64,000 nt of DNA from an uncultured Thermoplasmatales archaeon (GTDB lineage: Archaea; Thermoplasmatota; E2; DHVEG-1): the NCBI GenBank assembly GCA_964347865.1, contig CAYGAC010000017.1, positions 4 to 64,003 on the forward strand, in the 5' to 3' direction. Position 1 is the first letter of the stretch; the number at the start of each line of letters is the position of its first letter. Below, one piece after another: positions 3,506-58,495 of this stretch. The notes under the pieces were generated by a model. The model made no database searches and had not been told where the DNA came from. It saw only the letters and a program-made list of their open reading frames with translations. The position numbers were made by a program, and so were the translations under genes.

Positions 3506-3842
3506 ATTTTTTACAATAAACGATTTTTATTATATAAAATTCAGGGTAATTTGAGAATAAAATGATTTATTTAATAAATAAAAAAGAAAGTGTTATATAA
3601 TCGAATCTGATTCACACGCTCGGGAGAGGCAAATTATGCTAAACAATAAGTACAGAAATATTAACAGTCATTATTTTGGTGAGTTAGAACTTGTAGATAA
3701 GGAATTGTTTTTTATCTCTGCAAATAGACGTGATAATTAGGTTTTACTGTTTTAAAATCCTATAAATTAATAAGTTATTTAAATAACACTTCAAAGATTT
3801 GTTATAATAATTATTGAAATATATTTTCATTATAAAGATAAA

Positions 3843-4409
3843 ATGATAAAAGAGAAGATGATTAATACACCAATTCAAACCTTTTTTGTTTCAAGGGAAT
3901 TGAGTAATTGTCCTTATATACCAGACATTATTAGGTTAGGTAAAAAATTTGTAAAATTGGGAATGAAAGATATTGAGAATTATTGTATCAGTATCACCTA
4001 TGGTAAACGTATTTTGGTAAATACCAAACACAGTAACATTGAAAAAATAAATCAACAAGACTTTATTGAAATCGTGGATTATGATCCTTTGAAAAATATA
4101 ATATTAGCAATGGGTAAAAAATATCCGTGTATCGATACTCCAATCCATTGGTTAATACATCATGCACGAGATGATGTAAATGTAATTATTCAATTTAGCG
4201 GAGAGGGAATAGTAAGAAAATTTTTAAGCAATTTTTCTGTAACTAAAGAATATCATCCACCCGGGACTCTTGAATTAGCAAAAGAAGTTTTAAAAACACT
4301 TCGATCAAGTAAAAAGATAATAATTAAAAACATTGGTGTTTTGTTCGTAGGGATTAGTATAAAGGAAGTTGAAGATATGATTGTTAAAGCATATGAGGAA
4401 TCTATATGA
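3843..4409 (+). CDS. class II aldolase/adducin-family protein (MtnB-like methylthioribulose-1-P dehydratase candidate)
   Basis: Pattern D..EIVDYD...PCIDTPIHWLIHHARDDVNVIIQFS...Y.PPGTLELAKEV matches the class II aldolase fold with metal-binding His cluster. Its stop overlaps the mtnA start (ATGA). Confidence 0.45.
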   Translation: MIKEKMINTPIQTFFVSRELSNCPYIPDIIRLGKKFVKLGMKDIENYCISITYGKRILVNTKHSNIEKINQQDFIEIVDYDPLKNIILAMGKKYPCIDTPIHWLIHHARDDVNVIIQFSGEGIVRKFLSNFSVTKEYHPPGTLELAKEVLKTLRSSKKIIIKNIGVLFVGISIKEVEDMIVKAYEESI

Positions 4410-5374: not shown

Positions 5375-5623
5375 TAAAATCGTTTATAAGAGGAAAAAAC
5401 TCAAATTAATAGTTTTAGCCACCCTGATTTTATCTTTATAAATAAAGAAAGTTTTTTACGAATAAACAGAGGAATATTGATGATCACATGGAAATATATA
5501 ATAAAAGGCAATACGGGAACGATCATAACGAAAAATCATAGATACGCAGAAATAAAAAGTAGACAAGGGTACCGTGTTTTTTGTAAGCGTGAAAGAAATA
5601 TCTATAAATACTATCATTGATGG

Positions 5624-6022
5624 TTATTTTTTCCGATGAAAAACATAAAGTGTAGGAATCCTTTTTTTCTTACCTGTCCAATATCCACAGTTTGAACATC
5701 TGAATTCTATAGTAACCTCACCTCCCCAGATAGTAAGATTTTTTACGCGTTTAAGAGATGCGTTACAAACAGGACATCTAGTAAGAATTTTATGTGGATC
5801 TCCTTCTCTGCTATGAATCTCGATATTTACCAAACCACTTTTCAGAACAATATTACGTAATCTTCGTTCACTTACATGAAATTGTTTTTTCTTTGTTTTT
5901 AATTCTTTTTCGACTAACTTTTTTAACTTCCGTTGTGAGGATACGGTAAGATATTTTTCAAAAACTTTTTGAAGAGCTTTTGCTACTTTTTCATCAGATG
6001 GAATGTGATATAACATTGCCAA
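5624..6022 (-). CDS. basic zinc-ribbon protein, function unknown
   Basis: CPVCN...CSNCGYW four-cysteine ribbon; last gene of the minus-strand CBS operon. Confidence 0.4.
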   Translation of the reverse strand: MAMLYHIPSDEKVAKALQKVFEKYLTVSSQRKLKKLVEKELKTKKKQFHVSERRLRNIVLKSGLVNIEIHSREGDPHKILTRCPVCNASLKRVKNLTIWGGEVTIEFRCSNCGYWTGKKKRIPTLYVFHRKK

Positions 6023-34909: not shown

Positions 34910-35496
34910 AAGACAAGATAAGCATAGTTTTAACTGGTGTAGGTGGGCATGGCATTATCACTTCTGCAAATATTCTTGGAAAAGCAGCTTTGAAGGCAAA
35001 GGTAAATGTTTTTGTCTCTGAAGTTCATGGTATGGCACAATGTGGGGGGTCTGTTAATTGTGCTATTAGAATGGGCAATGTATCTAGCGCTTTAGTTGCC
35101 ACTGGAACAGCAGATGCAATAATTAGCACAGAACCCGTAGAAGCATTACGTTATATTCAATATTCAAACAAAAACACTAAGATTATAACTGATATCACTC
35201 CAGTAATACCTTTTACTGTCTCAGTAGGTATGGAGAAATATCCAGATATCAAACAAGTTTTAAAAGAACTGAACAAATACGGTAAATTGTACAAAATTGA
35301 TGCTGTGAAAATAGCTAAAGATGCAGGTGCCCTTATAACAAGAAATATATTTATGCTAGGTGCACTGGCAGCAGCAGGTGTTCTACCATTTAAATCTGAA
35401 ATTCTCTTAGAAACAATTCTTGAAAATGTCCCTGCAAAATTTAGAGATATGAACAAAAAAGCTTTTGAGTCTGGTTTAAAGGCAATCAAGGAATAA
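34906..35496 (+). CDS. iorB: indolepyruvate:ferredoxin oxidoreductase beta subunit
   Basis: ISIVLTGVGGHGIITSANILGKAA...VSEVHGMAQCGGSV; translationally coupled to iorA. Confidence 0.75.
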   Translation: MKDKISIVLTGVGGHGIITSANILGKAALKAKVNVFVSEVHGMAQCGGSVNCAIRMGNVSSALVATGTADAIISTEPVEALRYIQYSNKNTKIITDITPVIPFTVSVGMEKYPDIKQVLKELNKYGKLYKIDAVKIAKDAGALITRNIFMLGALAAAGVLPFKSEILLETILENVPAKFRDMNKKAFESGLKAIKE

Positions 35497-35649
35497 TAAT
35501 TAAAAATTTTTACCTACTAAATTGATTATTTAGTAAAATTCAATATTATTAAAGATATTGCTATCTTTATCTGGTTAACCATAGTAGGGAGAAAGGATGA
35601 GGAGAGCAAAAAGAGGTTTGAAATTCAAGAGGTTACAAGATTTCATTCA

Positions 35650-35945
35650 GAAACATCCTATCTTATTTATTCTATTGATAGCGGCAGTTCTTTACATTTT
35701 TTGATATGGATGCCATTTGGTCTACCAGCTTTCTTATATATTTCTATAAGCTCCTTTGGAATATCTATCCATGTTTGTTCTGAAAATTCTTGTCATAAAC
35801 ATTCTCCTATAATCAAATTTGGTAAATTTTTAGCTTGCTCTCCTTGTGGTGGAGGTAAGAGTTCCAGATTCTTTTTAAGATCTGGTAAAATATTATACCA
35901 TCTCTTTGGTAATTCATTAGGTAGAAGATTTACTTGATTTTCCAT
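35650..35945 (-). pseudogene. 5' remnant of a TrpB2-like PLP enzyme gene (in-frame TGA, then decay)
   Basis: Minus-strand translation gives MENQVNLLPNELPKRWYNILPDLKKNLELLPPPQGEQ...stop...QTWIDIPKELIEIYKKAGRP. The WYNILPDL / PPP / IP.E..E.Y...GRP blocks match TrpB2 N-termini. The rest of the gene is absent because iorB ends at 35496. Confidence 0.4.
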
Positions 35946-36155
35946 TTTTTCCCCCAGAAATTAAATTTTACTTTCTTCTCACAAAAAATGAGATATTATA
36001 TTATATTTTTAAATTAAATACAATCTCATTTTCAAAACCAGTAATATAAATCCTCATTTAAATATTCTGAATTTTAAAATCAAATAAGGTTTAATCAATT
36101 TGTATATATCAATAAAAGTAATTATAGGTATATTATTGAGTTAAATTAAAATTGG

Positions 36156-36515
36156 ATGGATATAAATACAAAAAAAGAATATATAGATTTAGTGGTTATA
36201 AGAGAAGTAAACGCAAAATCAATTTTGCGTAAACATAAAAAAATAGATTCATGGTTTTTAACAAATTATAGCATGAATTTATATCGTGGTTGTGCTCACA
36301 ACTGTGTTTATTGTGATGGTCGTTCTGAAAAATATCAAGTAGATGGTGAGTTTGGCAGAGATGTTATTGTAAAAATCAATGCAATAGACCTACTGCACAA
36401 GGAAATTAATCGAAATAATAAAAAAATGCTTTTGAAACTTGGATTTATCGGTTTAGGTGGCGGGGTTGGTGATAGCTATCAAAAATTTAATGGGGTGTTA
36501 TTTTCATATTTTTAG
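36156..36515 (+). pseudogene. truncated radical-SAM (spore-photoproduct-lyase/DNA-photolyase-like) N-terminal fragment
   Basis: NLYRGCAHNCVYCDGR carries the CxxxCxxC radical-SAM cluster in the SplB-like context. It is only 119 aa versus >300 for the family. Confidence 0.45.
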
Positions 36516-36718
36516 TTAAAAAATTGTAAAAACGTCACGTTTATATAAGTGCAATAAATAACGCGGGTTAATGATTAACATGATTTAACACATTATTCAA
36601 TTCTTTCAAAAACTATTTCTTTTTTTAATAGGTGTCAAATAATTTAAAAGTATCCTCAATAACAACTTATTTGTTACAACACTTTTTAACCAACAGCACG
36701 TTATATAGTATCTATATG

Positions 36719-36857
36719 TGTAATGTCAAGTGACATGGGTAACATTTTCCTAAGGAGAAAAAATGTTACCTTTTTGGATAATTATAGAGATTCATTACTG
36801 TTTTTTGGCAAGTCACACTTATACAACTGATGTTACCGATCTAAGTTGACATTACAA
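36719..36857. repeat. ~28-bp imperfect inverted repeat pair bracketing ~90 bp (MITE-like or cruciform)
   Basis: Left arm TGTAATGTCAAgtgacatGGGTAACAT, right arm ATGTTACCgatctaagTTGACATTACA. Confidence 0.45.
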
Positions 36858-36935
36858 TACGTAAAATTATTTAACCACCAAATCCTAAAACATTTCAATA
36901 AATCTCTAGGATAAATATACAAAAATGGTTATTAC

Positions 36936-37247
36936 ATGGTGAAAATATCATACACTGGATTGTGGATTAGGGATCACCTCAGTGAAGTGGGGGAAGATTA
37001 TATCCAGCATATGTCTACAGCATATCGAAAGGAGCTAAAACAAAGTAAAAAAGTTGTTAGCTCATATCATCAGTTTTGCAAATTGATCTATGTACTTAAG
37101 AGCATTGGTCTTATCGAGTTTGTCCGTGAGGAACCTGCCAACAAAAGATGGCTTAAGCCTCGGAAATATTATAGAATAAAACCTGGTAAAGAAGAAAGCG
37201 TGAAATGGAATAATCCACAAAAGCACTATGTGCCTAAAACTACGTAG
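36936..37247 (+). CDS. small basic protein, possible winged-helix DNA-binding
   Basis: ORF track; basic C-terminus; no strong motif. Confidence 0.25.
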   Translation: MVKISYTGLWIRDHLSEVGEDYIQHMSTAYRKELKQSKKVVSSYHQFCKLIYVLKSIGLIEFVREEPANKRWLKPRKYYRIKPGKEESVKWNNPQKHYVPKTT

Positions 37248-37461
37248 GCTTTTTTAGTTTGATAAATGAGCAATTTTCCACATTATATGAATGATAAACA
37301 ATTAGTGATAGAATTTTTAATCGTAGAAGCCGTTTTAAAAAATAATTTATAATTTTTAATTTTACTATTAATCTTTTTATAATTAAATTATAATCAGTTT
37401 TTTTGTATATCTTATTGAAAATAAACAAAATCATAAAAGAGCGTCATCTTTTATATTTTTA

Positions 37462-37487
37462 TTTCGGTTTATACCATTAACCGAAAT
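37462..37487. repeat. hairpin repeat copy E (TTTCGGTT-tataccat-TAACCGAAA)
   Basis: Member of a dispersed palindromic family sharing the stem TTCGGTT/AACCGAA. Confidence 0.5.
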
Positions 37488-37605
37488 ATATTTTTATAGA
37501 TAGAATTTTGGTAAATTTTAAAAAAATTTTTTGTAAATTTTTGATTAACGAAATTATTAAATTCCATTTTTAGATTATATGTTGGGATCAGGAAGGATTT
37601 CAAAT

Positions 37606-37736
37606 CTCATTGTTCGTCACTTTGATTTTTGATTATTCTTTTCTGATCCTATTGTTATTTTACCGTCTTGCTATTTTTACAGCAAAAATTTATATATAAA
37701 CATTTACAAAAAAATAAAATCGTGACGAACAATGAG
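37606..37736. promoter_or_regulatory. 21-bp inverted repeat pair (CTCATTGTTCGTCAC..GATTTT / AAAATCGTGACGAACAATGAG) spanning the promoter and start codon of 37732
   Basis: 15-bp perfect match read directly; the second arm contains the ATG of the downstream ORF. Confidence 0.45.
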
Positions 37737-38091
37737 AAAAAAGACAATTGAAAATAGAAAAATAAAAAATAGGCTGGTAATAAACAACGAATTACCTGAT
37801 CTGGAAATAAAATTTAGAAAATATCTAAAAGAATACCATCCTCATAAGTATCAACAACTATTGGACCTAGAAAAAGAAGAGAAAAAAGAAGTCCACGTTG
37901 TAATCAGTCTTTTTGGTGGTTGTCTCAATGATATAAAGGTTTTTTTCGACATCAAAAAAGCAAGAAAGGAATATAAAAGGCAAATTTTAGAGGCTGGTTT
38001 TACCAGTGTGGAAGAGTACGAAGAGTTGCTGAGAAGTGCCCTTATTGAGAAAGAAGAGCCGCGTTTATGTGAAAATGTAGAGGTGTGTTAG
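37732..38091 (+). CDS. hypothetical protein (first gene of PCNA-containing plus-strand module)
   Basis: Start ATG lies inside a 21-bp inverted repeat; no motif. Confidence 0.3.
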   Translation: MRKKTIENRKIKNRLVINNELPDLEIKFRKYLKEYHPHKYQQLLDLEKEEKKEVHVVISLFGGCLNDIKVFFDIKKARKEYKRQILEAGFTSVEEYEELLRSALIEKEEPRLCENVEVC

Positions 38092-42924: not shown

Positions 42925-42983
42925 GAGATTGAAATGTCTAGATTTCGGTTTAATATATAAACCGAAATAACAAAGTTTTCAAT
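42925..42983. repeat. nested hairpin repeat copy A (AGATTGAAA...TTTCGGTTTA-atata-TAAACCGAAA...TTTCAATCT)
   Basis: Two-tier inverted repeat read directly; lies ~170 bp from the 3' end of the IS200-type tnpA. Confidence 0.55.
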
Positions 42984-43156: not shown

Positions 43157-43720
43157 TCACCTCGTAAAATCTCCAATCTTCGCTTGACCGGTAGGGTCTC
43201 CAAAGATACTATACTCAAATACATCTTTTCCATCTTGTTCAAGGATATATCTCTTTACTGCATCTTGACTGACATGCCCTGCACTGCCACAGTAGTATCC
43301 TCGTGCCCACAGATAGTTAAATTGTTTCCAATGCTTGGGGTATCCTAGATATTTTAACTCAGGATAAAATTCCCGTAATAAACGTGATGATACACCTTTC
43401 AATTGTTTCACAATTACTGAAGGAATATGAGTTGGTTTCGCACCAACAAACAGATGGAGGTGATCTGGCATGATCTCTAGTGCAAGAGCATTCAATTGAA
43501 GTATTTTACATTCCTTCGTAAGTATGATGTTTAATGTCTTTTTTACATCGCCTTCAAGTACTAACTTTCTATATTTTGGAATCCAAACAAGATGATAATT
43601 GATGTTGTACTTGCAATGAAAACCACTTTTTACCGTTGCAATCTTTACATCCAGCTGATACTTGTTTGGATTGAAATGCGGGTAATTGTGTAACATGAAG
43701 GATGACGGTGCGCATACCAT
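43157..43720 (-). CDS. tnpA: IS200/IS605-family HUH (Y1) transposase TnpA, with N-terminal extension
   Basis: YHLVWIPKYRKLVL, MPDHLHLFV (HuH motif), LKGVSSRLLREF, LWARGYYCGSAG (catalytic Tyr). The true start is probably an internal Met giving a protein of ~150 aa. Confidence 0.8.
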   Translation of the reverse strand: MVCAPSSFMLHNYPHFNPNKYQLDVKIATVKSGFHCKYNINYHLVWIPKYRKLVLEGDVKKTLNIILTKECKILQLNALALEIMPDHLHLFVGAKPTHIPSVIVKQLKGVSSRLLREFYPELKYLGYPKHWKQFNYLWARGYYCGSAGHVSQDAVKRYILEQDGKDVFEYSIFGDPTGQAKIGDFTR

Positions 43721-47433: not shown

Positions 47434-48510
47434 TTAAGATTTTGCTTTTTTTCTTTCTTTTTTTAACTTTCTATACATTATAATTGTACTTACTGTTCCT
47501 ATTATTCCAACAGCAATGCTAGCTATTGTAACAAGAATATTAATCAAACTTAAATTAAATGAAAATTCTAGCCTATGACTTGGAATAACAAAAATTAGAC
47601 ACATTGCTATAACAAATATAACCAATACAAATAACCCAATCTTTTCGTTCCTATTTAGCCTCTTTCCTTTTATTGACCTTATTGAAGTCAGTAACTTGTG
47701 TAGTTTAGTGTAATCAATAAATTTAGTTACAAGAGAATCATCAGATATTTCTTTCAATCCAAATATCCTATTTCCAATTACCTTAATGAATGGAATAATA
47801 TCTGAATTTGTTAAGTATTTGAATCCGTCCTTAATAAAAGGAAAATATGAGATACTATTATCATTTGCTGATGCAAATATGTATTGTAACGAAAATAACT
47901 TTTTAGATTTATAGATTGTTGTTTTTTTATCAATACTTCTGAATCTAAAAAAATTCATATCGTTACATATATAAATACCAATTGACCGTGTTAGTACATT
48001 ATTTTCGTCTTTGCTTTGTGATGGAAGCTTGAAACTGATGATGTTTTTCTTGATTTCGTATTTTGGAGGTCGGTCGGGTACTGTTAAAAATAATGATGCT
48101 AAAAACCCTAGCATTCCACCAGAGAGTAGTCCACCTAAAAAGAATACAATAACTAACCCGGCTCCTATTAGATAATCGTTTAAAGTTATTATATAATTTT
48201 CAGGCATTGATAATATAGTTTGATGGAGCACCATAATGTAGGATACCAAATAATTAATAATGAACACAGGAAAATACAAGAACCAACCGCGATTAGCAAT
48301 CTTAAAATGAAGCGCAATTAATATCGAAAAAAAACCTATCCATAAAGGATAAGCAAGTAAATACCATAGGATTGATAGTCCAGATTTAGAGTCCCATTGA
48401 AGAATTGTTATAAACAACAAAATAAAATTAATTAATCCTAACCAATAGAAGAATTTATTATCTACTTCTAATCCTCTAATCTTTTTCATCTGGATTTGGA
48501 ATTGTTGCAA
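47434..48510 (-). CDS. polytopic membrane protein
   Basis: At least 6 hydrophobic helices. Confidence 0.45.
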   Translation of the reverse strand: MQQFQIQMKKIRGLEVDNKFFYWLGLINFILLFITILQWDSKSGLSILWYLLAYPLWIGFFSILIALHFKIANRGWFLYFPVFIINYLVSYIMVLHQTILSMPENYIITLNDYLIGAGLVIVFFLGGLLSGGMLGFLASLFLTVPDRPPKYEIKKNIISFKLPSQSKDENNVLTRSIGIYICNDMNFFRFRSIDKKTTIYKSKKLFSLQYIFASANDNSISYFPFIKDGFKYLTNSDIIPFIKVIGNRIFGLKEISDDSLVTKFIDYTKLHKLLTSIRSIKGKRLNRNEKIGLFVLVIFVIAMCLIFVIPSHRLEFSFNLSLINILVTIASIAVGIIGTVSTIIMYRKLKKERKKAKS

Positions 48511-48524
48511 TTCTAATAAAATTT

Positions 48525-49541
48525 ATGATTAAGGTTATTATTTTGGCAGTATTAATAATTACATACCTTCTTTGTCTAATATATTATGTAATTTTTTTAA
48601 AAAAGGAACAAATACCAAATATTAGGAATTTAATTCAATGTATGATGAGTAAACCTCAATTGATATATAACGAAGCTGAATTGAAAAAATATTTTGATGG
48701 AATAAAAGATAGATTCTTAAAAACCAAAAGATATATTTCAATTTTAGGTTTTTGGTTTACCATCTTAGTATTTTCTGGCGTTGGTATTGTTCCGGCATGG
48801 TTTATAAATACGAATATCGATTTCTTGAATTATTCTCCATATCAGCCTTTCTTTTTGTTATTCACTTGGATTATATTTGCCTGTATAGAAATTTATCCGC
48901 TTTTCTGGCTCTCAAAAAAAATTGTTAAAACATCACTCAAGCCTTATGATAATTTGTTTTGCATTGCATTTTCTGCTTATCAAAATATAAAATATGAAGA
49001 TGCAGAACTATTGAAAAAAGCTTCGCAACTATTGAAAGATGTTAAATTCAATACTCTGAAAACGAATATCGACAGTGCATATAAAGTTCCTGGATTAAAA
49101 AAGGAATGGATAAAAAGAATCGATAAACTTCTAAGTATCAATAAAGAATATGTTATACCTCGATTAGATGATGGTATTGAAATAGAAGAGATTAAACCAT
49201 TAGTTGGAAATTTCGCTCAATTTCTTTATTCACAAAACAATGAAAATATAAAACTTCAAGTTGAAGTTGTAAAAGATTCAGTAATCCGTGCAGTTTGTTT
49301 AGAGAAATATGAAAAAAAGAAACTTGATATTAAAAGTCAAACCTATTTCTCTCAAAATCCAATAATTAGTATGTTATCGTTTACTTTTAGTATAGCTGTC
49401 CTTTTAGTTGTAACAGGTTATATATTACTTAAAATTAATATTATAATTCCGGGTACTGAACCCGTTTCGTATTATACTATTGGTTCAATTTCAATATCAA
49501 TTTTGGGTGGTATTGGTCTGGCGAATCTATGTAAAAAATAA
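48525..49541 (+). CDS. polytopic membrane protein
   Basis: N-terminal and C-terminal TM helices. Confidence 0.45.
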   Translation: MIKVIILAVLIITYLLCLIYYVIFLKKEQIPNIRNLIQCMMSKPQLIYNEAELKKYFDGIKDRFLKTKRYISILGFWFTILVFSGVGIVPAWFINTNIDFLNYSPYQPFFLLFTWIIFACIEIYPLFWLSKKIVKTSLKPYDNLFCIAFSAYQNIKYEDAELLKKASQLLKDVKFNTLKTNIDSAYKVPGLKKEWIKRIDKLLSINKEYVIPRLDDGIEIEEIKPLVGNFAQFLYSQNNENIKLQVEVVKDSVIRAVCLEKYEKKKLDIKSQTYFSQNPIISMLSFTFSIAVLLVVTGYILLKINIIIPGTEPVSYYTIGSISISILGGIGLANLCKK

Positions 49542-49612: not shown

Positions 49613-49792
49613 TTATTCTTCTACCTCTAACTCTGCGCTTGGTGCGTTGCGTCTAACTGAATCTATACTGTTGAGGCATCCATCTTTCGTCTCATATCCT
49701 TCGCTTTGTGCAATTATCTCATTATTATCTGCTTTTAAATGGAAATACCATTGTCCATCCTTTTCTGATTTCCAACATTTAAATTTTCCCAT
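49613..49792 (-). CDS. YegP/DUF1508-family small protein
   Basis: MGKFKCWKSEKDGQWYFHLKADNNEIIAQSEGYETKDGCLNSIDSVRRNAP parallels the UPF0339 pattern (F.I.KD..G.W.F.LKA.NGEIIA.SEGY..K..C...IESV..NA). The ORF track extends 21 codons further upstream to 49855. Confidence 0.5.
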   Translation of the reverse strand: MGKFKCWKSEKDGQWYFHLKADNNEIIAQSEGYETKDGCLNSIDSVRRNAPSAELEVEE

Positions 49793-50141
49793 TTTCAAAA
49801 ACCTCCTTTTTAGGTTAAATATGTAATATATTATCGACTTATAAATGAATCCCATAAAGTCTTTATACAGTATTTAGAAAAATTGGAATTTATACCATAA
49901 ATATTATGATTCTTTTAAATCAAAAGATTTTTTCGTTCTTGATTGTAATATTAGAATTCCACCTCTCGAACTTTAGTTCTCATGAAATGCTGGATGATAT
50001 TTTCTCACTTGTTGTTGAATTTCTTCCCTCCCAATTTTTTGAGAAAATTTATATTGAAATTATTTCTTTTATTTATTATAACTTGCCCACGAAAACTCGC
50101 TCATGTGTAACTTTTTCCCGTCCATGGATAACCCCTAAAAA

Positions 50142-50164
50142 TTCGGTTAATGCGATTAACCGAA
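50142..50164. repeat. hairpin repeat copy B (TTCGGTTAAT-gcg-ATTAACCGAA)
   Basis: Same stem family; preceded by CTAAAAA as in copy C. Confidence 0.5.
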
Positions 50165-50413: not shown

Positions 50414-50668
50414 TCAGTTATTGATAGCTTTTTCGATTATTTCTATTTCCTTTTCGTTTAGACTATATAACCTACATATAAGCGAATCTAATTTTTGATC
50501 TGTATAGTTTATTTGACGTTGTAATATTTTCTTTTGTGTAGATAAGTTGATTTTTTTCATTTCTTTTTGTAAGATAATCATTTTTTTAACTTGTTGTTTT
50601 CTCTTTGTCACAAATTCTAAAAAGTTGCTAAAAGAATAATCTATCTCTTTCCACCAAGCGGAACCCAC
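50414..50668 (-). pseudogene. possible C-terminal remnant of an N6-adenine DNA methyltransferase (type IIG/BREX PglX-like tail)
   Basis: C-terminus ...LDSLICRLYSLNEKEIEIIEKAIN resembles the very common methylase tail D.LVY.LYGLTEEEI.IIE. Only 84 aa. Confidence 0.25.
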
Positions 50669-50819: not shown

Positions 50820-51980
50820 TTAAGATACTCGTTCTTTCAATGTATTTAATTCATCACCTTTGATATTAAAATTATTAGCAATATCGATCATTTCTCTTAA
50901 GATTACTTTGATTTCATCTGATAAATTCTTCTGTAATGTAACATTAATTAAATCAATAAAATCATCGACATATAATCCAAGTTTGTCTTGATTCTTTTTA
51001 TAAGCCCAATCTTTAATTTCAATAGTAGCTTCTAAATCAAGTTTGCATCTTTTTAAAATTTCAATATTAACATCTTTCGTTCCATATTTTATTTTATTAA
51101 TGTAGGCTTGCATCATTGCTTGTTTTTCAACAAAATTTAGATTTGTTAATGCAGTCATTTGTCTACTAGATTGAATTGCTAGATTATATGAAAAAGCAGC
51201 GATTGAAATTGATAGAATTGCCAATCCTATTGATGGGTTTATTAAGAACAAAATAACAATTCCAAATATCATTAGGAGGGTACCTGCAACAATATAATAT
51301 ATTTCAGAAATCGATCTTCTCATAATTATCTTTCTCCTTTGAGACCCTGTTTTTCTATTATTTGATTTTTTTCTACAATTAATATTAAAATATATTTGAA
51401 CAACCATTGCCGACAAGGTAAATAGTCCTAACGCAAGTATACCATAAGTTAACGCACGATGTTCATAACTCATTCTTGTTTGCAAGGCAGTGCTTTCTGT
51501 ATGAATCCTGATTTTCTCACCAGATGTAGATCGAAAATCCGGATCGTTTGCAGAGGGAGGATGATAAAAACTAATTTCATACCAAAGCCAATATTCCTTT
51601 GATTCATCTACATGGATATCTAAAGCTTTAGACCATTCATATGAGCGTTTTAACTTTATATTAAAATTTACTTCATATAAAGTCCGTTCAACATCTCCAA
51701 AACCCAACATTATATATATTGTAATATTCATTGGATATTGAAGCTCATTTTCAGGTTCAATAATAATAATTGTATTTATTGGTTCTAATTCTGAGAATAA
51801 ATAGTCGTTTGTTGATGCAATAATATTGATATAAACATCGGTGTCATTTATTAGTGCTATTGGAAAATCACGTGTTCTTTCTTTGTCAATCAAGGTAATT
51901 GCCCCTGTATATGAAAAATAAACACCAATTACTAAGCAAACTAAGATTACGGTTAAGACAATTATATGTTTTTTATTCAT
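50820..51980 (-). CDS. membrane protein (signal anchor, extracytoplasmic domain, 3 TM, cytoplasmic C-terminal domain)
   Basis: Last gene of the TIR-headed operon; topology read from hydrophobic segments. Confidence 0.45.
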   Translation of the reverse strand: MNKKHIIVLTVILVCLVIGVYFSYTGAITLIDKERTRDFPIALINDTDVYINIIASTNDYLFSELEPINTIIIIEPENELQYPMNITIYIMLGFGDVERTLYEVNFNIKLKRSYEWSKALDIHVDESKEYWLWYEISFYHPPSANDPDFRSTSGEKIRIHTESTALQTRMSYEHRALTYGILALGLFTLSAMVVQIYFNINCRKKSNNRKTGSQRRKIIMRRSISEIYYIVAGTLLMIFGIVILFLINPSIGLAILSISIAAFSYNLAIQSSRQMTALTNLNFVEKQAMMQAYINKIKYGTKDVNIEILKRCKLDLEATIEIKDWAYKKNQDKLGLYVDDFIDLINVTLQKNLSDEIKVILREMIDIANNFNIKGDELNTLKERVS

Positions 51981-51986
51981 ACATCT

Positions 51987-52865
51987 TTATCTTCTTTCTA
52001 ATATCTCATTTATTTTTATCCATTCATCGACAATATCCAACCCTTTATCCCAATATTTCTGGAAAGGAATTGGTTGATTAATCCCTGTTATAGAAGCATA
52101 TTGTCCCCTCTTTATAACATCTGGAGAGGGCAATAGAAACTTACGTTCTTCGGTAATTAAATATCTATCGTGAATATCTGTTAAAACCTTTTTTTCACAA
52201 ATTTTTAATGAGAAGCCAATATTTCTATTGTCAAGCTCATCTCTAATTTTTTTTGAGGCGTTCCTTAGATTTTCTGTAGCTTTTTCAATTGAAGTGATTA
52301 TTTTGACGTTTGTAACATTTGCATTTTCTTTTAGACCTTCATTTAATAATCTCAGACCGCCCTCATTGAAATACTTGTCAATAAGATATATGTTATCTCG
52401 ACAAGACTTAATAGTTTCAGTATAATGGAGCTCATTAGCAAAAGGTGTTTCTGGAGAAATAAGCCGATCATAAACATTATATTTACTTTCTAAAATGGTA
52501 TTAATGCGATCTAATATCGTATAATCTGATGATGTTTTCTCGATGTCCATCAACATAATAGTTGCCATTAGAGGTATCATAATAATTAACATCGGTACCA
52601 AAACAATAGTCATTGAAATCGTACTGAAATCTTCATTTGATATCCATCCTGTGAAACCTGCAATAGCCATAAAAACAAAAACAAAAATCATTACAATAAA
52701 AAAGACAATAAATTCGTATTTCAAAAGTCTAGGTAATACTGATCTGAGATTCTTATTAAATTTTTTTGAAAGATATGTGATCAACGATTTCTCTTCTTTC
52801 TCCTTAATTTTTATTTCATAACTTTTTCTTAAAGTTTCAAGTTCCTCCCTTGAGAGTTTTACCAA
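51987..52865 (-). CDS. two-TM membrane protein with ~190-aa C-terminal soluble domain
   Basis: 6-nt gap to the downstream gene; coiled N-terminus; two TM helices. Confidence 0.45.
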   Translation of the reverse strand: MVKLSREELETLRKSYEIKIKEKEEKSLITYLSKKFNKNLRSVLPRLLKYEFIVFFIVMIFVFVFMAIAGFTGWISNEDFSTISMTIVLVPMLIIMIPLMATIMLMDIEKTSSDYTILDRINTILESKYNVYDRLISPETPFANELHYTETIKSCRDNIYLIDKYFNEGGLRLLNEGLKENANVTNVKIITSIEKATENLRNASKKIRDELDNRNIGFSLKICEKKVLTDIHDRYLITEERKFLLPSPDVIKRGQYASITGINQPIPFQKYWDKGLDIVDEWIKINEILERR

Positions 52866-52949
52866 TTGAATATAGCTTGATATAATTTAACCTCCAGATT
52901 CCATTTATAGGATTATTATAAAAACGAAAACCCATATAAAACATAATCG

Positions 52950-53294
52950 TTACAATATTCGAAACTGTCTCCATATTTCTTTTTTAATTCTTTCTCGCTC
53001 TTCATATGGCAATCTAAGATACCATTCATAATTCTTTTTAAGCCATTCCATATTCTCTGGAGTACCTTTCTCACCAAAATGTTCTCTCCATCTTTGTTTA
53101 TGAATAACGGCATGACATAAATCACAGAGTGTCACCATATTTTCAGGTTTATTCTCTCCTCCTTTATTCTTATAACGAATATGATGGACTTGTGCTTCAG
53201 AAATCACTCCAGAATCAAATATTTTACCATCTCGATCTCCACATATCTGGCATTGATAGTTTTCTCTTTGTTTTACTTTTTTCTTAGTGCTCAT
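52950..53294 (-). CDS. HNH endonuclease
   Basis: YQCQICGDRDG...VHHIRYKNKGGENKPENMVTLCDLCHAVIH (CxxC...HH...N...LCxxCH). Confidence 0.7.
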   Translation of the reverse strand: MSTKKKVKQRENYQCQICGDRDGKIFDSGVISEAQVHHIRYKNKGGENKPENMVTLCDLCHAVIHKQRWREHFGEKGTPENMEWLKKNYEWYLRLPYEERERIKKEIWRQFRIL

Positions 53295-53379
53295 AATTAT
53301 TGAAAATGTGTATTCTCTTTATTTTTATATTTCCTTTCTTTTTTAAATCGGTATTTTTCATCATATTATATTAATTAGA

Positions 53380-53907
53380 TTATTTAGCAAGCAAAAATAG
53401 AATAATTTGTACAGCAATCAAAAATAGATTTATCCCAGTAATAATTAAAATAAATTTAGTTAACTTATTCATTGATTTAGTATGTTCTAATATTTTATTA
53501 TTTAATTTTGTTGATTTTTCATCGAATTTTGTCATTAAATCCAATAATTTAACACTTGATTTAATTATACCAACTTTAGCTGGGTCACATTCTGGAGTTA
53601 AAAACGAAATGAAACCATCTAGCAAACCACTTAAACCAACTCGTTTCTTTTTTTCACACATTACTCTCAAATTACCCAATTTTTCACAATCATAATATCC
53701 GTTACAACGTGTGATTTCATAGATTTCATAATTGTCTGATGAATCCAATTTATTTTTAAAATCAGTAGCACATTTTTTACTGCAAAAATCATGTGATTCT
53801 AACAATACTTTAACCTTATCTCTTTTCTCATATTTTCTAAATGACGCAAAATTATATTCATACATTTTCTTGCCACAATTTTCACATTTCATTTTTTTCC
53901 TCCACAA
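53380..53907 (-). CDS. FCS/TRASH-type zinc-ribbon protein with C-terminal tail-anchor TM helix
   Basis: KCENCGKK...(x22)...FCSKKCATDF; C-terminal LTKFILIITGINLFLIAVQIILFLLAK. Confidence 0.45.
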   Translation of the reverse strand: MWRKKMKCENCGKKMYEYNFASFRKYEKRDKVKVLLESHDFCSKKCATDFKNKLDSSDNYEIYEITRCNGYYDCEKLGNLRVMCEKKKRVGLSGLLDGFISFLTPECDPAKVGIIKSSVKLLDLMTKFDEKSTKLNNKILEHTKSMNKLTKFILIITGINLFLIAVQIILFLLAK

Positions 53908-53958
53908 GAATCTTATAATATTGGTCTACTTCTTTACTTCCCTTTATGCAATATTCTC

Positions 53959-54882
53959 TCAATTTTTAAAATAATTATCATTCAATCTTATATTAAAATC
54001 ATATACACTAGTTGGAAGATCATATGCTACTGCATCTATTGCTTGTCCCCAATCACCATATGGAGCAAAATCAGCACTCCCAACTGTGAAAAAACCAAAG
54101 ATATCATCTTCTTTTCGATAAGCAAATACACCAACCGCATCATATTTTCCAGTGTTGAATAATTCTACACAGCATTGTTTTAGATTATACACTACTTCGT
54201 CTCTAGATAATCCTTTGGGGAGAATAATCCTTGCAAGTTCTCTTCTTACTGTTGAAAAATTCAAAGACTCTTGATGCACAATTTTATAAGAAGGTTTAAA
54301 TTCACCTTTCTCCAATTCATATTTATCTAAAGATTTCCTCTCTTTCTTTTGAACAACTAGTTGATATGCCTTATCAAGACTTCCCTTACTTTGGTGGGAT
54401 ATTAGATCATACATTTTTTCAAATTCAGTTTTTCTCTTAATCCCCTGGTTTTTTTCAAAATCTAACAATTTTTTAATTGCAATATATGCAATATCTTGAT
54501 CTGATGTTTTTGAATAATCGATATAAATTATATTCCCCGGTAAACCGATTATCTCTGTATCATCTAATTTAATTGGTATATATCTGTTTTCAGAATCTCG
54601 CTTTAGGATTACATCCCATTCAAATCTTGTCCAATTTTTATCACGATAATGTTTTGATATATAAACTAGAACTTGCTTGGATTTAGTAAAAATTTCAGCG
54701 AATGTTTCTTCACCATCAGTTCCTACAAGCTTAAATTTTTTAAAAGGGGCAAAAAACACCTTATATCCATATTCATGTAATATTTTTGCAGACTTTGATG
54801 CGATTGAGTAATCTTCACCTGCATAAGAAACGGCAAAGTCATATGTGAAATCCATCGCATAACCTCCCAAATTATATTTCAT
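53959..54882 (-). CDS. TIR-domain protein with ~150-aa uncharacterised C-terminal domain
   Basis: YDFAVSYAGEDYSIASKSAKILHEYGYKVFFAPF...SKQVLVYISKHYRDKNWTRFEWDVIL matches the TIR pattern (DVFISYAGED...G.KVF.D...S...VVVLS..Y..S.WC..EL). The probable start is the second Met at 54855. Confidence 0.7.
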   Translation of the reverse strand: MKYNLGGYAMDFTYDFAVSYAGEDYSIASKSAKILHEYGYKVFFAPFKKFKLVGTDGEETFAEIFTKSKQVLVYISKHYRDKNWTRFEWDVILKRDSENRYIPIKLDDTEIIGLPGNIIYIDYSKTSDQDIAYIAIKKLLDFEKNQGIKRKTEFEKMYDLISHQSKGSLDKAYQLVVQKKERKSLDKYELEKGEFKPSYKIVHQESLNFSTVRRELARIILPKGLSRDEVVYNLKQCCVELFNTGKYDAVGVFAYRKEDDIFGFFTVGSADFAPYGDWGQAIDAVAYDLPTSVYDFNIRLNDNYFKN

Positions 54883-55084
54883 AATATCTTTTACTTTAAA
54901 TAGTTGTTTTAAAATCGACTATTTAAATCAAAGGTTTAGTCCTAAAACATATCTCACCTTCTCTCATTCAACAGAACTAGTTTCAGTAATTCCATACGGA
55001 ATTATCTTGGGTGAAAAACTAAGAATTATTTACTATTAGCTTTTATAAAGTGATAAATGTTATAAAAATCTCTGAGGATATACT

Positions 55085-55975
55085 ATGGTAGGCAAAGTTT
55101 TTTTAAGTTGTGGTCAAAGACCCCCTCGCGAAGAACGTATTGCTAAGAAGATAAAAAAGTTGCTAAAGGATAAATTTGACTTAGATTGTTATGTTGCTAT
55201 TAATATTCAGAGTTTAAATGACATAATGAAAATAACGGATGAATTGAAATCTTCGGATTATTTTCTGTTTGTTGATTTTTCAAGAAAAGACGAAAATTTT
55301 CCTTGTTCTGTATTCAGTCATCAGGAACTTGCTTTAGCTTACCATCTTGGATTCAAAGAGATGATCGCATTTAAAGAAAAGGATTTAAATTCAGAAGGTT
55401 TTATTAGATATGTCCAATCAAATCCGGAGTCATTTAAATCTGAAGCGGAACTACTTGAAAAAATCGAGAGTTATGTTAAACAACGGAACTGGAATAAGAA
55501 GTATTCTAGGAATCTAATTGTGGATCGTATTAAAAAATTTGAGATTCCCATTGTTTACACTGATCATACAGGTCGTTATGAGGAATATGTTTGGCATGCT
55601 TACATTAGGAATCTTAGACCTGATATCGCAGCAGTTAACTCGGTGTGTATATTAGATTATATAGAATTGCCAGACGGAACTAAAGAAAAATGTTATGACC
55701 GCAATTATCTAAAATGGGCAACAACAATAGGTTATCAAAAAACTATACTTCCAGAAGATTTTGGTATAGTTGATATTTTTGCGATTCGTGAGAAACCTCC
55801 TGGAATTTATTTGCACAGTCAGTGGGATATAATTATAAGAAATCCCGTAATAAAAAAAGATGGTAAATACAAATTACATTACAAAATATTCTCTGAAGAA
55901 TTTCCATTATTATTATTTTATGTAGAAGTCGATTATCAACATAAAAAATCTACTCAGGCAAAACTAATTAATTAA
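55085..55975 (+). CDS. DUF4062-like (TIR/deoxyribosyltransferase-related Rossmann) domain protein with unknown C-terminal domain
   Basis: KVFLSCGQRPPREERIAKKI...DYFLFVDFSRKDE...SVFSHQELALAYHLGFKEMIAF resembles the DUF4062 pattern (VFISSTFRDL.EER...DIYVGIIG.RYG...S.TE.EYE.A...GKPILVF). Divergent from the TIR gene. Confidence 0.4.
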   Translation: MVGKVFLSCGQRPPREERIAKKIKKLLKDKFDLDCYVAINIQSLNDIMKITDELKSSDYFLFVDFSRKDENFPCSVFSHQELALAYHLGFKEMIAFKEKDLNSEGFIRYVQSNPESFKSEAELLEKIESYVKQRNWNKKYSRNLIVDRIKKFEIPIVYTDHTGRYEEYVWHAYIRNLRPDIAAVNSVCILDYIELPDGTKEKCYDRNYLKWATTIGYQKTILPEDFGIVDIFAIREKPPGIYLHSQWDIIIRNPVIKKDGKYKLHYKIFSEEFPLLLFYVEVDYQHKKSTQAKLIN

Positions 55976-56137: not shown

Positions 56138-56659
56138 ATGTCCAATATACTTAGGTTTATGATTGACTATGATTTTAAATATCAATATAATTCAATAATA
56201 CCTAGAAAAGGTAGAAAAGAGGTTCTTGATGCAGTTCAAGCAAGTTTTTCTGGATTGGAAATCTGTGTAAAATTGACTACAGAGAGTTATATTAAAAGAA
56301 AAGACAAAACTCAAAATATCAAAAAATTCAATACATTTAGAAAAAGAGTTGACTATTTAAAGAAAAAAATTTTGATTACAAAAGAAGTTCATGATCTTAT
56401 GGTAATACTAGGAAGGATAAGGAATAAATTATTTCACGAAACAATAACTAACAAACAAATATTCAATTTATTCAATGAAATTATTTTAGATAATGATTTT
56501 GTAAAAAAAATAGGGAATGATTGTAGAAAATATCAATTGTTAGGAAGTTATTGTTGTATGGTTATATTCGAACTCCAAAAAAGTTTTGCACCTGAAGAGA
56601 TACTTCATTTAGAAGGAACGAAAGATACAAAATTTGAGCCTTATGACGGATTTATTTAG
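56138..56659 (+). CDS. putative HEPN-domain protein
   Basis: ILGRIRNKLFHE contains an R-N-x3-H motif in a predicted helix (HEPN Rx4-6H). Size 173 aa. Confidence 0.35.
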   Translation: MSNILRFMIDYDFKYQYNSIIPRKGRKEVLDAVQASFSGLEICVKLTTESYIKRKDKTQNIKKFNTFRKRVDYLKKKILITKEVHDLMVILGRIRNKLFHETITNKQIFNLFNEIILDNDFVKKIGNDCRKYQLLGSYCCMVIFELQKSFAPEEILHLEGTKDTKFEPYDGFI

Positions 56660-57416
56660 TAAAATGAATTTCTATTAAGTTAAACAATTTTTTCAATATA
56701 TCTGGGATTTTTTTATTATTAAGAGGATTTATCACCCCTTTAAAATGATTATTTTTCATCATAATAACAGATGATATCTTATCATTTTCTTTTTTCGAAA
56801 ATTCACCAAGAAAATGACGTATTACTTGTTTAGTTTCATTATTTATATTGTAGATAACCCCGCCTTTTCCATTTCTTTGACAAAAAATCAATAAATCCAT
56901 GAATTCGCCAAAATCAACTCCTGGTGGTACATTCATTAAAATAAAATTTATTTTGTCATCGGATAATTTCGAATGGATTTTATCTAGGATAATATCCCAT
57001 ATTCTAGTAATATCATCAATTTCTTCTGCATACTCGCCCATAGGTTCTAATAACTTTTGAGAGGTATGAAGATTCTTTACCTCAATTATTGAATTTAGTT
57101 CAGGTATTTCGACATCGGGAAAACTTTTTGATAAACGTATATCGATTTTATTTTTAATCAGATAACAAGCGGTTTTGATTTCTATTAATGTATCTTCAAA
57201 TTGAGGAGAATTATTTAATTTATCTCTTAAATCTTTATTAATTAAATTATTTTCATTAAGTATATAGAGATTTTCGTTGAATATTTTGAAATATTCACTA
57301 AAATCATAACGACTTTTTGAATTTAAGATAAATAATGGGTGATCTTTATTTTTACCATCATTAAACCATTCATTTGGAAATATTTCTAGTATATTGGGAA
57401 ATCTATCTAAAGACAT
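56652..57416 (-). CDS. hypothetical protein, convergent and overlapping the HEPN-like gene by 8 nt
   Basis: ORF track; no motif. Confidence 0.35.
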   Translation of the reverse strand: MSLDRFPNILEIFPNEWFNDGKNKDHPLFILNSKSRYDFSEYFKIFNENLYILNENNLINKDLRDKLNNSPQFEDTLIEIKTACYLIKNKIDIRLSKSFPDVEIPELNSIIEVKNLHTSQKLLEPMGEYAEEIDDITRIWDIILDKIHSKLSDDKINFILMNVPPGVDFGEFMDLLIFCQRNGKGGVIYNINNETKQVIRHFLGEFSKKENDKISSVIMMKNNHFKGVINPLNNKKIPDILKKLFNLIEIHFTK

Positions 57417-57708
57417 TTTAACATCTGTTTTTAAATTTTACAATAATGCAATATTATATAAAACTGGCAGTTAGCATAGTAAAAACCTTCTAAGTATTAC
57501 TATCACATATCAAACTCTAATCAAAAAATGAAATACGATTCTTAATCTATCATCACTGTATCCTGATTATTATCAGGTATGGACCACATACCCAGCTATA
57601 TATGTTGAGAAAACCTTAACTATTAATTGTTAAAAAGTATTGAGAATAGGTGTTTTCTGCCTGATTTGTCTTTGAATCACTGTCGTTTATTTGGAAATAC
57701 CTAAAAAA

Positions 57709-57731
57709 TTCGGTTAAGATAATTAACCGAA
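57709..57731. repeat. hairpin repeat copy C (TTCGGTTAA-gataa-TTAACCGAA)
   Basis: Same stem family; preceded by CCTAAAAAA. Confidence 0.5.
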
Positions 57732-58279: not shown

Positions 58280-58495
58280 TTACTTTTTTTTAACACCGAT
58301 TATCTGATCAATAAGTTCGTATTTTACCAAAGCCTTTCCTATTATTATTTTTCCATTCTCAATCCTGAAAAAAACTTCATCATTTGGTTTTAATTTTAAA
58401 AGTTTTAAAACTTCATGAGGTAGTGTTATCCTGTTTCTACTATCTATCTGTCGAGGTTTACTTAAGATTTTTTCCATATAAATTGTGGGATACAA
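58280..58495 (-). CDS. AbrB/MazE/SpoVT-type (swapped-hairpin) DNA-binding protein
   Basis: RNRITLPHEVLKLLKLKPNDEVFFRIENGKIIIGKA fits the looped-hinge-helix motif. Confidence 0.55.
   Translation of the reverse strand: MYPTIYMEKILSKPRQIDSRNRITLPHEVLKLLKLKPNDEVFFRIENGKIIIGKALVKYELIDQIIGVKKK

Follow-up and report, generated by a model that had tools for sequence, protein, structure and literature searches.

Six neighbouring genes in the window, the 64,000-nucleotide stretch of archaeal DNA analysed here, appear to be separate candidates for single-gene immunity, each uncharacterised, that form a patchwork and not one multi-gene system. We consider it fairly probable that they occupy a low-GC, variable island of an uncultivated archaeon's chromosome, in which independently mobile, mostly single-gene defence modules have accumulated side by side. 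All six open reading frames are present at the coordinates given by a first-pass annotation of this DNA. Five of them (in order of transcription TIR307, FCS175, HNH114, TM292 and TM386) form an array on the minus strand (50820..54882). The sixth, DIV296, is divergently oriented on the plus strand and is separated from TIR307 by an AT-rich intergenic region of 202 bp (54883..55084), for which a sigma-70 scan is uninformative, the host being an archaeon. The gaps within the array are 51, 85, 84 and 6 nt; the last three agree with the spacing reported earlier, the first is corrected from 52 nt and the intergenic region from about 200 bp.

The first-pass annotation had taken the five co-oriented genes, perhaps together with DIV296, as one immunity system, with a TIR signal or the depletion of NAD+ acting through HNH and membrane effectors. 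Co-orientation and the short gaps speak for this reading, TIR, HNH and TM proteins being common parts of defence systems, and in two further contexts a translationally coupled, multi-TM protein directly precedes the TIR307 homolog (L001, 1048-1437; L005, 5290-5997). However, the array genes do not recur near each other's homologs. Searches by tblastn with all array proteins detected no second array gene at 18 TIR307-homolog loci (about six unrelated contexts), at TM292-homolog loci in three contexts or at distant TM386 loci in one context, and none of the 80 DIV296 loci has an array gene nearby; the co-occurrence by which the annotation had proposed to judge its own claim is absent within the loci sampled. 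The sole adjacency retained is that of TM292 and TM386 in one ~80-84% identical relative (L025/26), which is too close for the pair to count as independent evidence, and for FCS175 and HNH114 the neighbourhoods speak neither way because pattern scans detected no close relatives. Additionally, the membrane proteins of L001 and L005 do not detectably resemble one another or any gene of the window, and profile searches detected no ligand-sensing domain (SLOG, Macro, SAVED, CARF or STING) in HNH114, FCS175, TM292 or TM386. The two spacers of ~85 nt, between FCS175 and HNH114 and between HNH114 and TM292, carry TATA-like AT tracts, and separate transcription is therefore possible. We give very little credence to a single system, and favour the patchwork of separate candidates. 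On the comparative data, a lineage-specific functional coupling of the co-oriented, short-gap genes may exist, and the 6-nt gap points to a shared transcript for TM292 and TM386 at the least.

Within this patchwork, TIR307 (53959..54882) is a credible immunity enzyme, given its TIR fold, an invariant glutamate at the catalytic position and homologs consistently located among BREX, R-M or SIR2 genes. The TIR domain recognised in the first-pass annotation passes the Pfam cut-off (TIR_2, 4.7e-15), covers residues ~13-130 and is followed by a C-terminal α+β domain (residues ~190-307). The true start is probably the ATG at 54855 (M10), 6 nt past a GGAGGT motif, from which the protein has ~298 aa, as in its homologs. 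There are 34 full-length homologs with 45-59% identity, and W84 and E88, which correspond in position to W638-x3-E642 of SARM1, are invariant across 21 sequences of the family. The AF2 model is moderately confident (pLDDT 68), and fold searches returned NADase TIRs as the closest structures, with 24-25% identity to AbTir.

The known proteins with the same fold and the highest similarity are the TIR NADases AbTir, BtTir, BtpA/TcpB and PdTIR, along with single-protein TIR abortive-infection effectors. Like the bacterial TIR NADases, TIR307 keeps the W-x3-E motif at the catalytic position and has homologs in defence islands; unlike them, it carries a family-specific C-terminal region of ~170 aa, and its activity is a prediction. 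This region is confined to the family of about 34 members, its domain has no sequence match in the PDB and no recognisable relative, and plasmid and phage TIR matches to TIR307 span only residues ~5-139. Searches of viral sequences found no virus association for the TIR307, FCS175 and TM292 families. We propose that TIR307 would be a self-contained sensor-effector, in which the C-terminal domain, serving in infection sensing or oligomerisation, would turn on the TIR domain; NAD+ would then be hydrolysed, perhaps also cyclised to cADPR isomers, and growth arrest or abortive infection would follow. The use of NAD+ is modelled on AbTir and BtTir, which are structurally closest to TIR307, and the role of the C-terminal domain is a guess, with "sensor" to be read as such since the model is only moderately confident and the domain is without a recognisable relative.

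At least three independent contexts have TIR307 homologs placed within bona fide defence systems or between such systems. Accessory defence genes, for example BrxU/GmrSD, nest in BREX operons, and one clade of TIR307 homologs is likewise placed between pglX and pglZ of BREX with gaps of 0-10 nt. Here the nested genes encode TIR proteins and not type IV restriction enzymes, and unlike them TIR307 itself has no BREX genes nearby in the window according to a Pfam search. Another homolog has a C5-methylase/HATPase/HhH-GPD cluster on one side and a type III R-M system on the other, and a homolog from Pacearchaeota (L016) adjoins a second TIR protein (TIR175) and a SIR2 protein.

The Pacearchaeota cluster brings Thoeris into consideration, which consists of a ThsB TIR sensor and a ThsA effector of the SIR2-SLOG/Macro type. 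TIR307 resembles Thoeris in combining a TIR domain with an extra domain that could sense infection, and in having one homolog near TIR and SIR2 genes. It could thus be a ThsB-like generator of a cADPR-type signal, with an effector supplied by a gene at another place in the genome or by a variable neighbour, and would then not kill by NAD+ depletion. AbTir and BtTir, its closest structural relatives, do make cADPR isomers, and the second TIR protein of the Pacearchaeota locus matches ThsB models (2.4e-9). We nevertheless judge such a generator rather unlikely: TIR307 itself matches no ThsB model in PADLOC, where only PDC-S66 was found (3e-8), and the SIR2 protein of that locus matches generic and pAgo-associated SIR2 models, is not ThsA-like and has no relative within the 64 kb of the window. 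A Pfam search of the window found no SIR2, SLOG or Macro gene adjacent to TIR307 and no ThsA-type gene is present, most homolog contexts are without SIR2, and the BREX and R-M contexts contain no candidate receptor gene.

DIV296 (55085..55975, plus strand) would be a second, unrelated self-contained module, with a predicted N-glycosidase core of NDT/TIR fold (residues 1-133) that places E81 at the catalytic position, and a C-terminal β-sandwich (residues 144-295) proposed as the sensor. The structure is predicted with high confidence, and F6, S8, G10, S75, Q80 and E81 of the core are invariant in 53 sequences. Single-gene NADase defence by DUF4062/NIR proteins, in which a DUF4062 core with an auxiliary domain depletes NAD+, is described for Swarozyc, Evangelion and Vulcan (bioRxiv 10.64898/2026.05.01.722283, 10.64898/2026.06.25.731849, 10.64898/2026.09.04.749371). 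Like these systems, DIV296 is encoded by one gene whose neighbours vary and are often of defence type, and the protein begins with a TIR-like α/β core, which has an N-terminal aromatic residue and a conserved Glu, and ends with an auxiliary domain. It differs in that the auxiliary domain is a β-sandwich instead of a helical stalk, HEAT repeats or a short variable region. A further difference is that most members of its family come from uncultivated bacteria and archaea, and searches of plasmids and phages gave no match. The earlier description as DUF4062-like stands for the TIR/NDT-like core, but at the sequence level the protein fails each test of DUF4062 (Pfam included) or TIR membership. 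Only one of the 53 relatives matches DUF4062 (0.0067), and hhalign against the pMW2 DUF4062 protein is not significant (E 0.36), with F11 and E87 of that protein aligned to F6 and E81.

The best structural matches of DIV296 are NDT, MilB and Rcl and not TIR, and its substrate could for this reason be a nucleotide instead of NAD+. A possible though doubtful alternative to a NADase is a nucleotide or nucleoside N-glycosidase of NDT/DNPH1/MilB type with (modified) nucleoside monophosphates as substrates. Against it, sequence comparison with the PDB gave no match to chains of NDT, Rcl or MilB even at E 10, and TIR_2 is the only family matched by more than one DIV296 member (5 of 53). The fused, conserved β-sandwich and a patchy distribution linked to R-M, helicase and SIR2 genes also suit a conflict system better than salvage. 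An N-glycosidase of this kind could serve in defence, where it would deplete or sanitise nucleotide pools, or could belong to ordinary salvage. The DIV296 family comprises 613 clusters, is absent from PADLOC and, in the 80 genome loci examined, spans archaea and many bacterial phyla in an HGT-like pattern. Among these 80 loci, any one neighbour family recurs in 4 at most; the neighbours include ResIII/SNF2 helicases, HSDR_N, methylases, SIR2, Mrr and integrases, and also certain housekeeping genes.

Of the remaining array genes, TM292 (51987..52865) would encode a MIT_C/PLD-like protein anchored in the membrane. Its N-terminal region is helical and is followed by a two-TM hairpin (residues 52-70 and 87-105) and a large soluble C-terminal domain that carries an invariant IHDRYLIT...LLPSPDV.KRGQYA motif in the family alignment and matches MIT_C below the cut-off (E 0.0036). 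Only 7 homologs were found; homologs stand without other array genes in a GmrSD/HNH/SIR2 island and elsewhere. Residues 104-242 match the PADLOC candidate PDC-S05 at 4.7e-7; one representative of this candidate, for which a RhuM domain is described, protects E. coli (bioRxiv 10.1101/2024.09.26.614923). Unlike that protein, TM292 has a two-TM hairpin and no RhuM match, and its similarity is limited to profile positions 143-266 of 306. TM386 (50820..51980), 6 nt downstream of TM292, is a near-orphan membrane protein and would be a lineage-local neighbour: the database yielded three matches, one of them TM386 itself, and a distant relative, which belongs to a Thermoplasmatales MAG, is not accompanied by TM292. 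It has three clear hydrophobic segments, or four by eye, and both genes encode membrane proteins as first described.

HNH114 (52950..53294) would be a small, free-standing HNH nuclease; its earlier assignment is upheld by Pfam HNH (2.5e-11, above cut-off), and it also matches the IscB HNH region (8.6e-12) and many PHROG HNH families. FCS175 (53380..53907), whose start is probably the ATG at 53892 (M6), which a GGAGG motif precedes, is a Cys-rich protein best treated as an orphan, a pattern scan having found no relatives in metagenome or viral contigs. Of its description as an FCS zinc-ribbon tail-anchor, the CxxC...FCSxxC pattern and a single C-terminal hydrophobic helix (residues 152-170) are present, the latter making a tail-anchor plausible, but the zf-FCS match stays below the cut-off (E 0.017, 15.4 bits against 22.4).

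A chance run of fast-evolving accessory genes with housekeeping or niche functions, unrelated to immunity, would fit the observation that only TIR307 and HNH114 pass curated family thresholds, that FCS175 and TM386 are near-orphans and that part of the DIV296 neighbours are housekeeping genes. We hold this to be improbable in view of the TIR307 homologs in and between defence systems, the TM292 homolog in the GmrSD/HNH/SIR2 island and the setting of the genes themselves. The accessory, defence-type island proposed earlier is borne out by a GC content of 0.283 over 45.6-58.6 kb against 0.376 in the core, a nearby IS200 Y1 transposase (43157-43720, 6e-33), a MazE/AbrB-type antitoxin-like gene at the island edge (58280..58495, minus strand; Pfam MazE_antitoxin 2.5e-9), which is the AbrB of the first-pass annotation, and a putative type IIG restriction-methyltransferase remnant. 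The latter, an 84-aa ORF (50414..50668, minus strand), is probably the methylase remnant noted before, with a weak match to the extreme C-terminus of PADLOC REase_MTase_IIG (5.8e-5, profile positions 950-1003 of 1011).

Further along the island, a 173-aa ORF (56138..56659, plus strand) is possibly the HEPN protein claimed earlier, judging from an Rx4H motif (RNKLFH) seen by eye and a DUF4145 match of E 0.15 only. The adjoining 254-aa ORF (56652..57416, minus strand) is functionally unassigned and matched no family in Pfam and PADLOC profile searches; by eye, it appears to contain a PD...E.K-like motif (FPDVEI...IIEVKNL). The hairpin repeats attributed to IS200 are real, as is the IS200 copy, but a comparison ruled them out as its ends. 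The left copy of this 40-nt element (50125..50164, plus strand; stem TTCGGTTAAT / ATTAACCGAA; DNA fold z-score -4.0) and the right copy (57692..57731, plus strand; z-score -3.4) have the same orientation and flank a 7.5-kb block.

The first-pass annotation read an array of five minus-strand genes, perhaps together with a divergent plus-strand gene, as one uncharacterised TIR-headed multi-gene immunity system. The anatomy behind that reading was confirmed, with all six open reading frames found where they had been placed: a TIR-domain gene (TIR307, 53959-54882), a gene with a zinc-ribbon-like signature (FCS175, 53380-53907), an HNH-family gene (HNH114, 52950-53294) and two membrane-protein genes (TM292, 51987-52865; TM386, 50820-51980) lie on the minus strand with intergenic gaps of 51, 85, 84 and 6 nt, and the plus-strand gene DIV296 (55085-55975) diverges from TIR307 over a 202-bp spacer. 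Judging from the sequence, TIR307 probably starts at the ATG at 54855, 6 nt past a GGAGGT motif, which gives about 298 aa, the usual length in its family, and FCS175 probably at the ATG at 53892, which is preceded by GGAGG.

Comparison with other genomes argues against a conserved five- or six-gene system. Every array protein was searched by tblastn against homolog-bearing loci from other genomes, and in 18 loci with TIR307 homologs the TIR gene alone was matched, a second array gene being absent. Likewise, no other array gene was found near homologs of TM292 (loci L020-22) or TM386 (L023-24), and none of the array genes lay near DIV296 homologs in 80 genome loci. Adjacency of TM292 and TM386 was kept in only one relative, approximately 80-84% identical (L025/26; JGI 3300008517, SRR3095939); a further locus, L019, is the same genome re-assembled (100% nucleotide identity), and the contig itself also turns up in run ERR2564001. 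The lack of co-occurrence that the first-pass annotation itself regarded as a sign of chance juxtaposition therefore applies to every testable gene, namely TIR307, TM292, TM386 and DIV296. The co-oriented genes might still be functionally coupled in this lineage only; nothing we found supports such coupling, and the putative effectors carry no signal-sensing domain recognisable in profile searches.

The most likely explanation, in our view, is a defence-type island assembled from independently mobile modules, in which TIR307 and DIV296 would each be a self-contained sensor-effector enzyme, TM292 a membrane-anchored PLD/MIT_C-like protein, TM386 a lineage-local neighbour, HNH114 a free-standing nuclease and FCS175 an orphan. 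The data establish the domain assignments, the conserved residues and the absence of co-occurrence, and from these any enzymatic activity, sensing function or antiviral effect is inferred. The defence context and the TIR enzyme of the original interpretation are thus retained, and its multi-gene system is given up. A five-gene TIR/HNH/membrane system, if real, would be a notable addition to archaeal immunity, and the comparative evidence against it spares the effort of cloning the full array. What is new is a pair of unrecognised candidate single-gene families, not another kind of system; that the DIV296 and TIR307 families represent previously undescribed single-gene immune modules is a tentative proposal, which we consider possible though rather doubtful. 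Both candidates are uncaptured by PADLOC models and have clear mutable residues, E88 in TIR307 and E81 in DIV296. Validated archaeal single-gene systems would be of some value, given the reportedly poor characterisation of defence repertoires in archaea (NAR 2026, PMC12988326).

In TIR307, the TIR domain was recognised both by sequence profile and by structure. The Pfam family TIR_2 matches the protein at E 4.7e-15, over the cut-off, and in fold searches the N-terminal domain falls among TIR domains (AF2 model pLDDT 68), the closest structures being AbTir (24-25% identity), BtTir and BtpA, which are bacterial NADase/cADPR-forming TIRs. Residues W84 and E88 are invariant in 21 family members and are taken by us, on motif position and not structural superposition, to occupy the W-x3-E position of the SARM1 catalytic E642. 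An alternative catalytic Glu, E58 of a DGE motif, was dropped in favour of E88 since the catalytic Glu of SARM1 sits in W-x3-E. The C-terminal ~170 residues feature an invariant FAPYGxW-type motif and a confidently modelled ββαβββ unit (residues 200-300), and this region is confined to the small TIR307 family, as matches to plasmid and phage TIR proteins end at residue ~139; a profile-vs-PDB search with the C-terminal domain gave no meaningful sequence relative. The family would represent a TIR-plus-novel-domain module that is nestable in BREX operons between pglX and pglZ.

The 34 TIR307 homologs, nearly all full-length (~300 aa) and 45-59% identical, derive from Pacearchaeota, Cloacimonadota (Tenebribacter), Methanolacinia and Bacteroidales and lie in neighbourhoods unrelated to that of the window. 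These include homologs flanked by PglX and PglZ within type 1 BREX operons, homologs with a C5-methylase/HATPase_c_3/HhH-GPD cluster on one side and a type III R-M system on the other, a homolog adjoining a 175-aa TIR protein and a SIR2 protein (L016), and two additional contexts. The BREX-nested homologs (L002 6001-6975, L003, L004, L006-L009) form a clade and are 324 aa long with a C-terminal extension of ~25 aa. As the pglX-TIR-pglZ gaps measure 0-10 nt and the TIR stop directly abuts the pglZ start, the arrangement points to translation together with BREX and perhaps to a link in function. The cluster directly upstream of the homologs in L010-L015 (e.g. L010 640-5824), next to type III R-M, is a conserved set of four genes encoding a C5 DNA methylase, a 714-aa HATPase_c_3 protein with type II REase-like matches, a 367-aa protein and an HhH-GPD DNA glycosylase, and may be an uncharacterised modification-dependent system. 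Further, a multi-TM protein gene immediately precedes the TIR gene both in L001 (1048-1437, 129 aa), the context of the closest homolog, and in L005 of Methanolacinia paynteri (5290-5997, 235 aa), with a 4-nt overlap or 3-nt spacing at the junctions. Neither of these membrane proteins detectably resembles the other or any gene of the window, and, as a weaker extension, archaeal TIR307 proteins may work with variable membrane partners.

The divergent gene DIV296 encodes a confidently modelled protein (pLDDT 93.8) with an α/β core (residues 1-133) and a β-sandwich (residues 144-295). Its structural matches comprise nucleoside 2-deoxyribosyltransferase (NDT; score 14.3), MilB (13.8) and Rcl/DNPH1 (13.1) on one side and TIR domains (12.7 and 12.0) and ThsB (9.8) on the other, so NDT-type enzymes outscore TIRs, and the predicted substrate may be NAD+ or a (modified) nucleotide in the manner of DNPH1 or MilB. 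Across 53 family members F6, S8, G10, S75, Q80 and E81 are invariant, and the β-sandwich is conserved too. Homologs were located by an alignment-based scan at 80 genome loci, with Bathyarchaeia, Omnitrophota, Acidobacteriota and Planctomycetota among the source lineages; a single-sequence pattern scan of genome contigs gave none. R-M, helicase, SIR2 and Mrr genes are among the neighbours at these loci, with no neighbour family present in more than 4 of the 80 and thus no conserved partner. In the locus of the closest homolog (64% identity, Bathyarchaeia MAG, L027), a 350-aa SIR2_2 protein (4652-5701; PADLOC SIR2, 3.5e-18) is encoded immediately upstream on the same strand.

The N-terminus of DIV296 had been described as DUF4062-like; a TIR-like α/β fold is supported, a match to the DUF4062 profile is not. 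Pfam returned no match for the protein, DUF4062 (PF13271) stayed unmatched when the N-terminal domain was searched alone with a limit as loose as E 10, and among the 53 family members TIR_2 was matched weakly in five and DUF4062 weakly in one (0.0067); a profile-vs-PDB sequence search gave nothing meaningful. In three preprints of 2026, DUF4062, renamed NIR, is shown to be a TIR-like NADase that, combined with an auxiliary C-terminal domain, forms the single-gene NAD+-depleting abortive infection systems Swarozyc, Evangelion and Vulcan (bioRxiv 10.64898/2026.05.01.722283, 10.64898/2026.06.25.731849, 10.64898/2026.09.04.749371). In the DUF4062 protein of S. aureus plasmid pMW2 (WP_000072390.1), F11 and E87-Y88 match residues named for Eva01, and hhalign of the DIV296 family against this protein placed F11 on F6 and E87 on E81 at a non-significant E of 0.36. 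DIV296 shares with the DUF4062/NIR systems the single gene, the C-terminal auxiliary domain and the defence neighbourhoods, and differs from them in its lack of sequence-level DUF4062 membership; the missing profile match and the non-significant but in-register alignment therefore place it outside DUF4062 by sequence, with the same architecture. The DIV296 family is large, with 613 clusters at 50% identity. On this reading DIV296 would found a cross-domain family whose members couple an NDT/TIR-fold N-glycosidase to a β-sandwich sensor; current defence-finder models would miss this family, distantly related as a sister group to the DUF4062/NIR NADases. DIV296 would carry the theme of a TIR-like NADase plus auxiliary domain, with another sensor domain, into a large and mostly uncultivated family of bacteria and archaea.

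The remaining array genes have fewer relatives. HNH114 matches Pfam HNH at E 2.5e-11, over the cut-off, and FCS175, with one C-terminal TM helix, matches zf-FCS at E 0.017 (15.4 bits), under the cut-off of 22.4; pattern scans revealed no close relatives of HNH114 in metagenome contigs and none of FCS175 in metagenome and viral contigs. TM292 has two TM helices and a C-terminal domain with an invariant HDR-containing motif and a weak match to MIT_C (PF16565; E 0.0036, 17.7 bits against a cut-off of 25), and its profile-vs-PDB sequence search gave nothing meaningful. Membership of the PADLOC candidate model PDC-S05 was rejected for TM292, as the match (4.7e-7) covers only profile positions 143-266 of 306 and Pfam finds no Virulence_RhuM domain. 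The sole PDC-S05 protein that has been validated is reported to carry a RhuM domain (bioRxiv 10.1101/2024.09.26.614923), and the likeness is therefore at the domain level only. Seven database entries match TM292, itself included, and at ~60% identity homologs stand alone in a GmrSD/HNH/SIR2 island and next to an unrelated 134-aa membrane protein. The N-terminus of the homologs is ~20 residues longer, and the conserved peptide runs on upstream of the TTG start in the window (..SYIQ-LVKLSREEL vs ..KYID-LVKLPRDEL, 52866-52900) with an in-frame TAA 8 codons upstream, right behind a GGAGGT motif, so that TM292 has either a non-canonical ATT/ATA start or a 5' truncation at the insertion of the upstream genes. 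TM386, with three to four hydrophobic helices and no family, has three matches, including a 48% relative in a Thermoplasmatales MAG with no TM292 alongside.

Several described systems were compared with the array. For Thoeris, TIR307 has no ThsB match in PADLOC, where the candidate model PDC-S66 (3.3e-8) was the sole return, and no ThsA-type gene is adjacent, SIR2, SLOG and Macro being unmatched among 10 neighbouring window proteins. The 459-aa genes beside TIR homologs in L001 and L016 were also considered as a shared ThsA-like partner; they are mutually unrelated and without relatives in the window. The SIR2 protein of L016 matches generic and pAgo-associated SIR2 models, not ThsA. For CBASS and Pycsar, no nucleotide cyclase family (CD-NTase or PycC) was matched in any neighbouring protein, and for Zorya type II neither ZorA nor ZorB was matched, HNH114 resembling the ZorE models of PADLOC in the HNH region only (~4e-6). 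A prophage structural or lysis module, which the first-pass annotation had named as a competing origin, left no sign: IMG/VR gave no family relatives of TIR307, FCS175 or TM292, phage records have no match to DIV296, and PHROGs gave generic HNH matches only.

The block is bracketed by two copies of a 40-nt element in the same orientation (50125-50164 and 57692-57731), the only two in the window; a perfect 9-10 bp hairpin, TTCGGTTAA[T]-loop-[A]TTAACCGAA, forms the end of each. Between them lies 7.5 kb extending from an 84-aa ORF that resembles the C-terminal end of a type IIG enzyme (50414-50668) through a 254-aa ORF. A looser relative of the hairpin (ATTTCGGTTTA...TAAACCGAAAT) is found at 42942-42968, 190 bp from an IS200 Y1 transposase gene (43157-43720). 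The bracketing hairpins are not the ends of that IS200 copy, whose own flanking hairpins differ in sequence. Candidate identities for them are IS200/IS605-like ends or REP/PATE-type elements that bound a mobilisable cassette, or simply terminators. Just beyond the left repeat is a gene for a small DUF1508 (YegP-like) protein (49613-49855, 5.7e-22), and left of this are genes for two poorly conserved multi-TM proteins with no family matches (47434-48510 and 48525-49541).

The GC content is 0.283 over 45.6-58.6 kb against 0.376 in the window core, a MazE/AbrB gene is located at 58280-58495, and β-helix/PKD surface-protein genes flank the island on both sides. No tRNA or Rfam RNA was found in the 64-kb window, and a sigma-70 promoter/terminator scan, with fewer sites than shuffles, is uninformative here as its consensus is bacterial and the host archaeal. 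The archaeal host is evident from genes for a PCNA-type sliding clamp, HdrA2, IOR and AOR. The 432-aa ORF at 38832-40130 matches the archaeal PCNA sliding clamp over its first ~250 residues (2.3e-24) and has a C-terminal extra region of ~180 residues. Two further low-GC stretches of the window, at 2000-5000 and 35000-38000 (GC 0.27-0.29 against ~0.38), possibly represent acquired islands as well.
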